Source of the DNA: Escherichia coli
Lineage (GTDB): Bacteria > Pseudomonadota > Gammaproteobacteria > Enterobacterales > Enterobacteriaceae
Length of the DNA: 64,000 nt
Strand: one strand, 5' to 3'
NCBI RefSeq assembly: GCF_009931435.1
Contig: NZ_CP043414.1
In this document: one piece after another, positions 14,947-60,333 of the stretch
Layout of the letters: every line of letters starts with the position of its first letter
Numbering within the stretch: position 1 is the stretch's first letter
The notes under the pieces: model-generated
Told to the model about the DNA's origin: nothing
Database searches by the model: none
The model's input: only the letters and a program-made list of their open reading frames with translations
Translations under genes and position numbers: made by a program

Positions 14947-15208
14947 CGTGACCCCCTTAAATTTATTAACCAATTGTTAACTAATGGTTATTAATATAGC
15001 TCTTAATTAACAACAGGTTACAGCAATGAAAATGTTCTTCGTTATTGAGAATAACATGAATGGTGCATTGGTCATACCAAAATTGATGTTAATCAAGTTT
15101 TGTTGCTGAAAAGATAGGCTGATTTACCGGATGAGATCAAAAAATACAGCTTATTGTTTATTATTTAAACGAATTCAGGAGGGTGAGACGTATATGGAGG
15201 GCGTTTGG

Positions 15209-15339
15209 TAGGCCTGATAAGACGCGAGCGGCGTCGCATCAGGCACATTGCCAGTGTCGGATGCGGCGTGAACGCCCTATCCGACCTACAGAATTTACAG
15301 AATCTGGAACGCATCAGGTATCAGCAAGGTTACCTGATG
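15209..15339. repeat. REP/BIME cluster plus perfect 9-bp-arm inverted repeat downstream of ycfP
   Basis: taggcctgataagacgcgagcggcgtcgcatcaggc, gtcggatgcggcgtgaacgccctatccgacctac, and catcaggta-N10-tacctgatg. Confidence 0.7.
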
Positions 15340-25274: not shown

Positions 25275-25912
25275 GCGTTCTGCTCCTTAACCCAATTGGT
25301 CACGGTAGTGCGGATTGCATCCATCACGGACTCCAGCGGCTGGGTGGCATCAATGGTATGAATGCTTTTATCTTGTGCTGCCAGTTCCAGATAGCGGGCG
25401 CGGGTGCGATTAAAGAAATCGAAAGACTCTTGCTCAATACGATCCAGCTCGCCGCGCGCACGCGCGCGTTTTAAGCCAACTTCCGGGGTAACATCGAGAT
25501 AGAGCGTTAAGTCGGGGCGAAAATCCCCGAGAACAGCATCACGCAGCGTTGCCAACATATGTTGGTCAATACCACGTCCGCCCCCCTGATACGCTTGAGT
25601 AGAGAGATCGTGGCGGTCGCCAATAACCCAAGTGCCGTTAGCCAGCGCAGGTTTGATGACCGTTTCTACCAGTTGAACGCGCGCGGCATAAAACATCAGA
25701 ACTTCGGCTTTATCGGTAATGACTTCATCGCCTACCGATTTGATATCCAGCACCAGGCTTCTTAACTTTTCGGCAAGTTGCGTACCGCCAGGTTCCCGAG
25801 TGAAAACCATGTCGCGGATACCCAGTTGCTCGAGCGTCTCAACCACCACGTTACGCGCGGTAGTTTTGCCTGCGCCTTCCAGCCCCTCAATGACGATATA
25901 CTTACTGCGCAT
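25271..25912 (-). CDS. tmk: Thymidylate kinase
   Basis: 213-aa ORF with P-loop GLEGAGKTT. Confidence 0.92.
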
Positions 25913-58373: not shown

Positions 58374-58423
58374 TATCCTTTGTGTCCGGCAAAAACATCC
58401 CTTCAGCCGGAGCATAGAGATTA

Positions 58424-59470
58424 ATGACTGCACCATCCCAGGTATTAAAGATCCGCCGCCCAGACGACTGGCACCTTCACCTCCGCGATGGCGACATGTT
58501 AAAAACTGTCGTGCCTTATACCAGCGAAATATATGGACGGGCTATCGTAATGCCCAATCTGGCTCCGCCCGTGACCACCGTTGAGGCTGCCGAGGCGTAT
58601 CGCCAGCGCATTCTTGACGCCGTACCTGCCGGGCACGATTTCACCCCGCTGATGACCTGTTATTTAACAGATTCGCTGGATCCTAATGAGCTGGAACGTG
58701 GATTTAACGAAGGCGTGTTCACCGCTGCAAAACTTTACCCCGCAAACGCAACAACTAACTCCAGCCACGGCGTGACGTCGGTTGACGCAATCATGCCGGT
58801 ACTTGAGCGCATGGAAAAAATCGGTATGCCGCTACTGGTGCATGGTGAAGTGACACATGCAGATATTGACATTTTTGATCGTGAAGCGCGCTTTATTGAA
58901 AGCGTGATGGAACCGCTGCGCCAGCGCCTGACCGCGCTGAAAGTCGTTTTTGAGCACATCACCACCAAAGATGCTGCCGACTATGTCCGTAACGGAAATG
59001 AACGGCTGGCTGCCACCATCACTCCGCAGCATCTGATGTTTAACCGCAACCATATGCTGGTTGGTGGCGTGCGTCCACACCTGTATTGTCTACCCATCCT
59101 CAAACGCAATATTCACCAACAGGCACTGCGTGAACTGGTCGCCAGCGGTTTTAATCGCGTATTCCTCGGTACGGATTCTGCGCCGCATGCACGTCATCGC
59201 AAAGAGAGCAGCTGCGGCTGCGCGGGCTGCTTCAACGCCCCAACCGCGCTGGGCAGTTACGCTACCGTCTTTGAAGAGATGAATGCTCTGCAGCACTTTG
59301 AAGCATTCTGTTCTGTAAACGGCCCACAGTTCTATGGCTTGCCGGTCAACGACACATTCATCGAACTGGTCCGCGAAGAGCAACAGGTTGCTGAAAGCAT
59401 CGCATTGACTGATGACACACTGGTGCCATTCCTCGCCGGGGAAACGGTACGCTGGTCCGTTAAACAATAA
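58424..59470 (+). CDS. pyrC: Dihydroorotase
   Basis: 348-aa [36 protein letters not shown]... Confidence 0.95.
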
Positions 59471-59504
59471 AAATCGTAGCTTCCTGTTGTCATTAGGTTA
59501 TTTT

Positions 59505-59524
59505 AACTGTATAAATAACCAGTA
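59505..59524 (+). promoter_or_regulatory. LexA (SOS) box of the dinI promoter
   Basis: aaCTGTataaataacCAGta fits CTGT-N8-ACAG with one mismatch in the right arm, about 20 nt upstream of the dinI ATG. Confidence 0.75.
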
Positions 59525-59543
59525 TATTCAACAGGGGGCTATT

Positions 59544-59789
59544 ATGCGAATTGAAGTCACCATAGCGAAAACTTCTCCATTGCCAGCTGGGGCTATTGAC
59601 GCCCTGGCTGGCGAACTTTCCCGCCGTATTCAGTATGCGTTTCCTGATAATGAAGGCCACGTATCGGTACGTTATGCCGCAGCGAATAATTTATCGGTTA
59701 TTGGCGCAACAAAAGAAGATAAACAGCGCATTAGCGAAATTCTCCAGGAAACGTGGGAAAGCGCCGATGACTGGTTTGTCAGCGAATAA
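59544..59789 (+). CDS. dinI: DNA damage-inducible protein I (RecA modulator)
   Basis: Start at internal ATG gives the 81-aa protein MRIEVTIAKTSPLPAGAIDALAGELSRRIQYAFP... Confidence 0.92.
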   Translation: MRIEVTIAKTSPLPAGAIDALAGELSRRIQYAFPDNEGHVSVRYAAANNLSVIGATKEDKQRISEILQETWESADDWFVSE

Positions 59790-59810
59790 TATGCAGTGAT
59801 TTTTGTTTTT

Positions 59811-59836
59811 GCCGGGTCGCCCCGGCTTTTTTATTT
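59811..59836 (+). terminator. Rho-independent terminator downstream of dinI
   Basis: Hairpin gccggg-tcgc-cccggc followed by ttttttatttt. Confidence 0.7.
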
Positions 59837-60078
59837 TACTTACGAATTTCGAGTACAAAATTTCTACACTTCCTCAAAATAATTGCACAATATGCTAAAA
59901 AAATATGAATGACATGCTGTTTTATTGTTCATATAAATCTTAAAAGCAAAAATTTATCTGTTCCCCCCTTTAAAAATTCGGTGAATACCCTTACTTATTG
60001 GTATACTGAAGTTGCTTCAGATAAAAACGCATTGAACCTCGAATAACGTTGTCTAGTAACACGAATTAGGGGGCCATG

Positions 60079-60333
60079 ATGGAAAAAAATAATGAAGTCA
60101 TTCAGACTCATCCGCTCGTAGGGTGGGACATCAGCACCGTTGATAGCTATGATGCGCTGATGTTGCGTTTGCACTACCAGACCCCAAATAAGTCCGAGCA
60201 GGAAGGGACTGAAGTTGGTCAGACGCTCTGGTTAACCACTGATGTTGCCAGACAATTTATTTCGATATTAGAAGCAGGAATCGCCAAAATTGAATCCGGT
60301 GATTTCCCGGTAAACGAGTATCGGCGTCATTAA
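60079..60333 (+). CDS. bssS: Biofilm regulator BssS
   Basis: 84-aa protein MEKNNEVIQTHPLVGWDISTVDSYDALMLRLHYQ... from the second of two tandem ATG codons. Confidence 0.88.
   Translation: MEKNNEVIQTHPLVGWDISTVDSYDALMLRLHYQTPNKSEQEGTEVGQTLWLTTDVARQFISILEAGIAKIESGDFPVNEYRRH

Follow-up and report, generated by a model that had tools for sequence, protein, structure and literature searches.

The SOS box of dinI is already known, the gene being a canonical, long-established member of the LexA regulon. The E. coli locus considered here raises the question of whether a sequence that departs from the K-12 operator still serves as the LexA operator of dinI, and of what this departure might mean for the control of the gene. 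The locus was analysed within a 64-kb stretch of DNA (hereafter the window), and lexA itself is located outside this stretch. The first-pass annotation had placed an SOS box just 5′ of dinI, with one right-arm mismatch to the pattern CTGT-N8-ACAG. The string on which it relied, aaCTGTataaataacCAGta, was found letter for letter in the window. The box proper is a 20-mer on the + strand, AACTGTATAAATAACCAGTA, which lies 19 nt 5′ of the dinI start codon; a search of the accessible literature did not return this exact 20-mer. It has the palindromic CTG-N10-CAG core and the AT-rich spacer of the Gammaproteobacterial LexA operator, TACTG(TA)5CAGTA. The mismatch count was also correct, and the mismatch itself, a C at box position 15, is frequent and tolerated, with C being found in 6 and A in 11 of 17 validated boxes. 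The coordinates of the box and of the features surrounding it are collected in Table 1.

The identity of the downstream gene was established from its product. The encoded protein matched the Pfam family DinI (PF06183) with 102 bits, for a cut-off of 24.2 (E = 2e-29), and the solved structure 1GHH over residues 1–81 of 81 (E = 1e-49 for 1GHH/7YWA), so that both profile and structure assign it to the DinI family, as the first-pass annotation had it. The gene order, yceB-pyrC-dinI-bssS-solA, is the same as in E. coli, and megablast found the region 59300–59900 in 5,425 of 5,426 complete E. coli genomes, where it is annotated as pyrC and dinI. The intrinsic terminator that follows dinI folds as RNA with -13.5 kcal/mol (z = -2.15). 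Counted from the stop codon through the terminator (59790–59837), the 3′ UTR amounts to about 48 nt and is devoid of the Klebsiella-specific segment from which the DinR small RNA derives. On the other side of the locus, a PyrC leader was matched by Rfam above the gathering score just 5′ of pyrC (58374–58423, +).

Table 1. Features of the dinI locus and other LexA-like sites of the window. Matrix score and heterology index (HI) refer to the 20-column LexA model described in the text, and conservation to 75 unique upstream sequences from Enterobacteriaceae.
Feature	Position	Strand	Matrix score (bits)	HI	Hits expected by chance	Conservation (bits per column)	Remarks
Inferred -35 of the sigma-70 promoter of dinI, TTGTCA	59487-59492	+				1.50	5/6 to TTGACA; 17 bp before TATAAA; kept as TTGT[C/A]A
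12 nt between TTGTCA and box						0.38	
LexA box of dinI in the window	59505-59524	+	25.8	2.75	5.9e-5, both strands of window	1.74 (mean)	
K-12 dinI allele			22.6	4.95	0.0015 in window		
Operator polymorphism, box position 2	59506	+					A here, C in K-12
Left half-site CTGT	59507-59510	+					
Inferred -10, TATAAA	59510-59515	+					within LexA box; 5/6 to TATAAT; 17 bp after TTGTCA
Spacer ATAAATAA	59511-59518	+					8 nt; 8/8 A/T
Right half-site CCAG	59519-59522	+					
Shine-Dalgarno block	59531-59538					1.88	
Shine-Dalgarno AGGGGG of dinI	59533-59538	+					5 nt 5′ of ATG; nearly invariant across species
dinI coding sequence	59544-59789	+					81 aa + stop; ORF; Pfam and PDB matches; RefSeq annotation dinI
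Intrinsic terminator of dinI	59811-59837	+					GCCGGG-TCGC-CCCGGC + T run; terminator scan
Site within tmk	25733-25752	-	13.6	11.2	0.84		
Site 5′ of ndh	14982-15001		11.3	13.0	about 3		

A palindrome of this kind could arise by chance in AT-rich intergenic DNA and have no regulatory role. In line with this possibility, the loose pattern CTGT-N8-ACAG with at most one mismatch occurred 20 times in the window, for 19.4 ± 4.7 occurrences expected from dinucleotide-preserving shuffles, and it was therefore uninformative alone. A signal emerged only after scoring the AT-rich spacer and the flanks as well. To this end we used a 20-column log-odds matrix, together with the Berg-von Hippel heterology index (HI), built from the 18 LexA boxes of Table 4 in PMC3009722, from which dinI was removed against circularity (17 training boxes). 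The HI scale of this matrix is comparable to that of the literature, since the K-12 dinI allele gave 4.95 for a published value of 4.8 (PMC11228462).

When both strands of the window were scanned with this matrix, the dinI site ranked first by more than 12 bits. Its score has an exact tail probability of 4.6e-10, and none of 300 random 64-kb sequences of the same first-order composition reached 25.8 bits, their best scores averaging 13.3 ± 2.2 bits and never exceeding 22.7. The validated boxes themselves (n = 18), when scored leave-one-out, ranged from 11.5 to 28.8 bits and from 0.6 to 12.8 HI units. The window box falls inside this range of experimentally validated sites and, far from scoring below them, it exceeds 14 of the 18. 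Among strong E. coli operators, recN and dinD scored 26.2 and 25.6 bits, respectively, under the same leave-one-out conditions, and the recN box shares the CCAG right arm of the window box; these two boxes serve other genes and the likeness concerns predicted strength only.

The same scan bore out the statement that no other LexA-like site is present in the window, as the next-best matches were at chance level. The second-best one, TGCTGGATATCAAATCGGTA, is internal to the tmk coding sequence and was discarded. The third, TAATGGTTATTAATATAGCT, is situated 37 nt 5′ of the ndh start codon and was also discarded, being probably a chance match. In Salmonella, ndh is weakly damage-induced and has a putative box with an HI of 12.04 at 157 bp from the ATG (PMC8072944). 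The Salmonella list also gives a second dinI box, with an HI of 17.6, at 42 bp from the ATG (PMC8072944). No such second upstream box was found among the top matches of the window scan, and the conserved sequence present there, CTGTTGTCA, fits a -35 element better.

We then compared the box with the published dinI operator. Over 121 bp (59440–59560), the window and K-12 BW25113 are identical at 120 positions, and the sole difference is the base at 59506. The aligned BW25113 20-mer, ACCTGTATAAATAACCAGTA, is identical to the dinI entry in Table 4 of PMC3009722, so that 19 of the 20 box bases are equal and only box position 2 differs (A for C). The K-12 box occupies the same pyrC-dinI-bssS locus, at the same 19 nt from the ATG. 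AZT raises dinI expression 49-fold in K-12, and this response is 39-fold dependent on LexA cleavage (PMC11228462). The window box is thus orthologous to an operator that is experimentally under LexA control. From the full 20-nt matrix and this orthology, on which the call rests because the loose core pattern is not enriched, we conclude that the 20-mer is almost certainly an SOS box, namely the LexA operator of chromosomal dinI in this E. coli strain.

This assignment was further examined by following the box across species. A scan at one genome per species yielded 80 dinI loci from other Enterobacteriaceae, in Escherichia, Citrobacter, Salmonella, Enterobacter, Lelliottia, Kosakonia, Kluyvera, Buttiauxella, Cedecea and other genera. 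A box was present 5′ of dinI in all 80 of them, with scores of 21.3–28.6 bits, and it was located 18–21 nt before the ATG in 76; in the other four, extra sequence has been inserted 3′ of the box, ahead of the ribosome-binding site. CTGT and CAG did not vary in any of the 75 unique upstream sequences that were aligned. The origin of the box as a chance palindrome is effectively refuted by this conservation in 80 of 80 species with an invariant core, by the position of the site one nucleotide away from a validated operator, and by the score probabilities given above.

Two kinds of insertion were seen in this interval. One, of about 126 nt, was found in two Buttiauxella loci (L064 and L082, at about 1860–1985), and the other, of about 42 nt, in two Trabulsiella loci (L035 and L036, at about 1945–1990). 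The box and the -35 are still present upstream in both genera. The Buttiauxella insertion seems to resemble an ERIC repeat.

The alignment also showed that the LexA box is conserved as a discrete block, separated by a poorly conserved stretch from a second block, TTGTCA, and followed by a third one at the Shine-Dalgarno sequence (Table 1). Such a footprint is what one would expect if a -35 element, an operator enclosing the -10 and a ribosome-binding site succeeded one another. Within the box, five of the six positions of TATAAA were invariant across the 75 sequences and the sixth was kept in 70 of them. We therefore considered the possibility that the block is conserved merely as the core promoter of dinI, LexA binding to the A allele being weak or irrelevant. 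Promoter constraint alone would indeed keep part of the box, as the invariant TATAAA lies inside it. Yet the equally invariant CTG (59507–59509) and CAG (59520–59522) are outside the -10 and are disposed symmetrically, as a dimeric repressor requires. Furthermore, expression from the K-12 allele depends strongly on LexA in vivo, and the only change in the window goes towards the consensus, A being the base found in 13 of 17 validated boxes. A block maintained only for promoter function is, in the light of these observations, highly improbable, and the LexA operator remains the preferred reading.

The first-pass annotation had also proposed that the box overlaps the likely dinI promoter. This view is supported by the conserved TTGTCA, by its distance of 17 bp to the TATAAA in the box and by the start site mapped in Klebsiella, which together suggest that TTGTCA-17 bp-TATAAA is a near-consensus sigma-70 promoter of dinI. 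The promoter call relied on the conservation of the two hexamers. A built-in consensus promoter scan reported no + strand promoter 5′ of dinI; it missed TATAAA because it demands a T at position 6 of the -10, and the dinI hexamer ends in A rather than in this highly conserved T. We discarded TATATT (59523–59528) as an alternative -10, since it would place the -35 in the unconserved spacer and the start site in the Shine-Dalgarno sequence; such a start would be external to the box, contrary to the Klebsiella mapping. With TATAAA as the -10, transcription is predicted to start at about 59521–59523, inside the box; a literature search for a mapped dinI transcription start in E. coli returned nothing usable. 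In vitro, dinI is transcribed preferentially by the sigma-70 holoenzyme (PMC3141248).

An operator may be functional and nonetheless contribute little, if most dinI expression came from pyrC read-through or from a further promoter. The distance from the pyrC stop codon (59470) to the dinI ATG is only 73 nt, and a scan of 59300–60100 found no terminator-like site in this gap. Against this stand the 39-fold LexA dependence observed in K-12 with the same arrangement and the conservation of the -35 hexamer as a separate block. In Klebsiella, a monocistronic, damage-induced dinI transcript starts in the box (PMC10907235). We consider it very unlikely that the box plays a minor part, and retain the view that dinI is controlled by LexA from its own promoter.

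The proposed mechanism is as follows. In undamaged cells, a LexA dimer would sit on the half-sites CTGT and (C)CAG, with the AT-rich spacer in between. It would thereby cover the -10 and the predicted start and exclude RNA polymerase; such promoter occlusion is likely, since the box spans both the inferred -10 and the predicted start site. Upon DNA damage, RecA filaments on single-stranded DNA stimulate the self-cleavage of LexA, and the operator would empty. The derepressed dinI transcript, extending from the box to the terminator, would be roughly 315 nt long; its product, DinI, modulates the RecA filament. By this scheme, we infer that LexA occupies the dinI box in the strain from which the window derives.

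Related systems behave as this scheme would have it. In Klebsiella pneumoniae, the mapped start of dinI transcription falls within the orthologous box and the LexA ChIP signal decreases after mitomycin C (PMC10907235). The dinI-DinR locus of this species thus combines a LexA box, ChIP-verified occupancy and damage inducibility; it differs from the window locus in having additional 3′ UTR sequence, from which the small RNA DinR is produced (PMC10907235), whereas the dinI 3′ UTR of the window is limited to the short stretch described above. Salmonella dinI has a box at 19 bp from the ATG with an HI of 4.0, and is induced 22.8-fold (PMC8072944). Both the Salmonella enterica dinI and the dinI copies of the Gifsy prophages have a strong box at this distance, with HI values of 3.9–5.3, and are damage-inducible (PMC8072944). 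In the Salmonella arizonae locus (L026), the box, AACTGTATATATATACAGTA, is found at the same distance from the ATG as the window box. The Salmonella boxes differ from the window box by their spacer and by their right arm, which is ACAG instead of CCAG. The prophage copies are paralogues, with about 45–50% protein identity.

Phage-borne dinI homologues gave results that agree with the Gifsy prophage data (PMC8072944). A strong LexA box was found upstream of all five that were sampled, and it was located 13–19 nt before the ATG in four of them. In the fifth, from Erwinia phage EtG, it precedes a longer annotated ORF, at 228 nt 5′ of the region that was matched. Two LexA boxes, 28–29 nt apart, were seen in phage mEp460 (L085, 340–387) and in an Stx2d phage (L086, 339–387), one abutting the -35 and the other just before the ribosome-binding site. 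The dinI homologues of lambdoid and Stx phages differ in this respect from the chromosomal gene, which has a single box.

We next turned to the base that distinguishes the window from K-12. To determine its frequency, we used 40-base probes centred on the polymorphism, which do not seed across the mismatch and therefore allow the two alleles to be counted separately. Among 5,426 complete E. coli genomes, the A allele was found in 208 and the C allele of K-12 in 4,819. The window thus carries a minority, more consensus-like operator allele and not the K-12 sequence. The remaining genomes, as far as sampled, showed GCCTG or were altered either at box position 19 or immediately 3′ of the box, and none of the sampled variants altered the CTGT or CAG core. 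The E. coli operator therefore varies at the flanking positions 1, 2 and 19, and not in its core. Across other Enterobacteriaceae, A is the commonest base at position 2 (60 of the 75 unique sequences). By contrast, C was found in the representatives of Escherichia that were sampled (E. coli, E. albertii and E. whittamii); among the 17 validated boxes, only 1 has C.

Replacing C by A at position 2 changes the predicted score by +3.3 bits and the heterology index by -2.2 units, and A at 59506 is accordingly predicted to tighten LexA binding modestly. Whether this base, which about 4% of complete E. coli genomes carry, is a natural polymorphism of operator strength is a more doubtful matter, and we put it forward only tentatively. 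If it were so, and if the Berg-von Hippel relation held literally, a decrease of 2.2 in the HI would correspond to an up to roughly 9-fold tighter binding of LexA. The A allele could then lower the basal expression of dinI or delay its induction, and it could shift the size of the subpopulation that is spontaneously 'ON'. In Salmonella, a shift in the 'ON' subpopulation is reported to accompany a single-nucleotide polymorphism of the yebG box (PMC8072944).

The finding of the dinI box has little weight beyond correct annotation, and the only mildly new element is this natural variation of the operator. Operator variants such as the A allele, an IS insertion and a deletion provide natural material on the relation of operator strength to the timing of SOS genes and to cell-to-cell heterogeneity. 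The insertion and the deletion each represent a rare case of a strain in which the operator is lost. The IS insertion was observed in E. coli MLI108K1 (L093, NZ_CP116994.1, 3030–4370), where the ISL3-like element ISKox3 interrupts the dinI box, precisely within its AT spacer. It is flanked by an 8-bp target duplication, ATAAATAA, and separates CTGT and the promoter from CCAG and dinI. The deletion, of about 520 bp, was found in E. coli ST2747 (L094, NZ_CP007394.1, 3030–3090). It starts after box position 3 (ACC) and takes away the rest of the operator and the whole of dinI, so that pyrC abuts the region upstream of bssS.

Some observations concern the window at large. The best match of positions 40001–64000 among the 5,426 complete E. 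coli genomes was 98.7% over 24 kb, and the 601-bp dinI region was 100% identical to that of strain 2017-02-2CC. It seems that the lineage of the window, possibly Shigella or a divergent branch of E. coli, is absent from this collection, or that the locus is mosaic. The window is not collinear base for base with 2017-02-2CC, their identity amounting to about 98.5–98.7% with few indels, and the annotation coordinates taken from this strain are approximate to the left of about 50 kb in the window. One of the differences is an indel of about 57 nt with REP-like sequence in the potD-cobB intergenic region (515–626). Finally, Rfam matches above the gathering score were obtained for the RNase E 5′ UTR element (36307–36643, +), for the small RNA SraB (34278–34446, -) and for the REP-derived naRNA4 (15211–15286, -).
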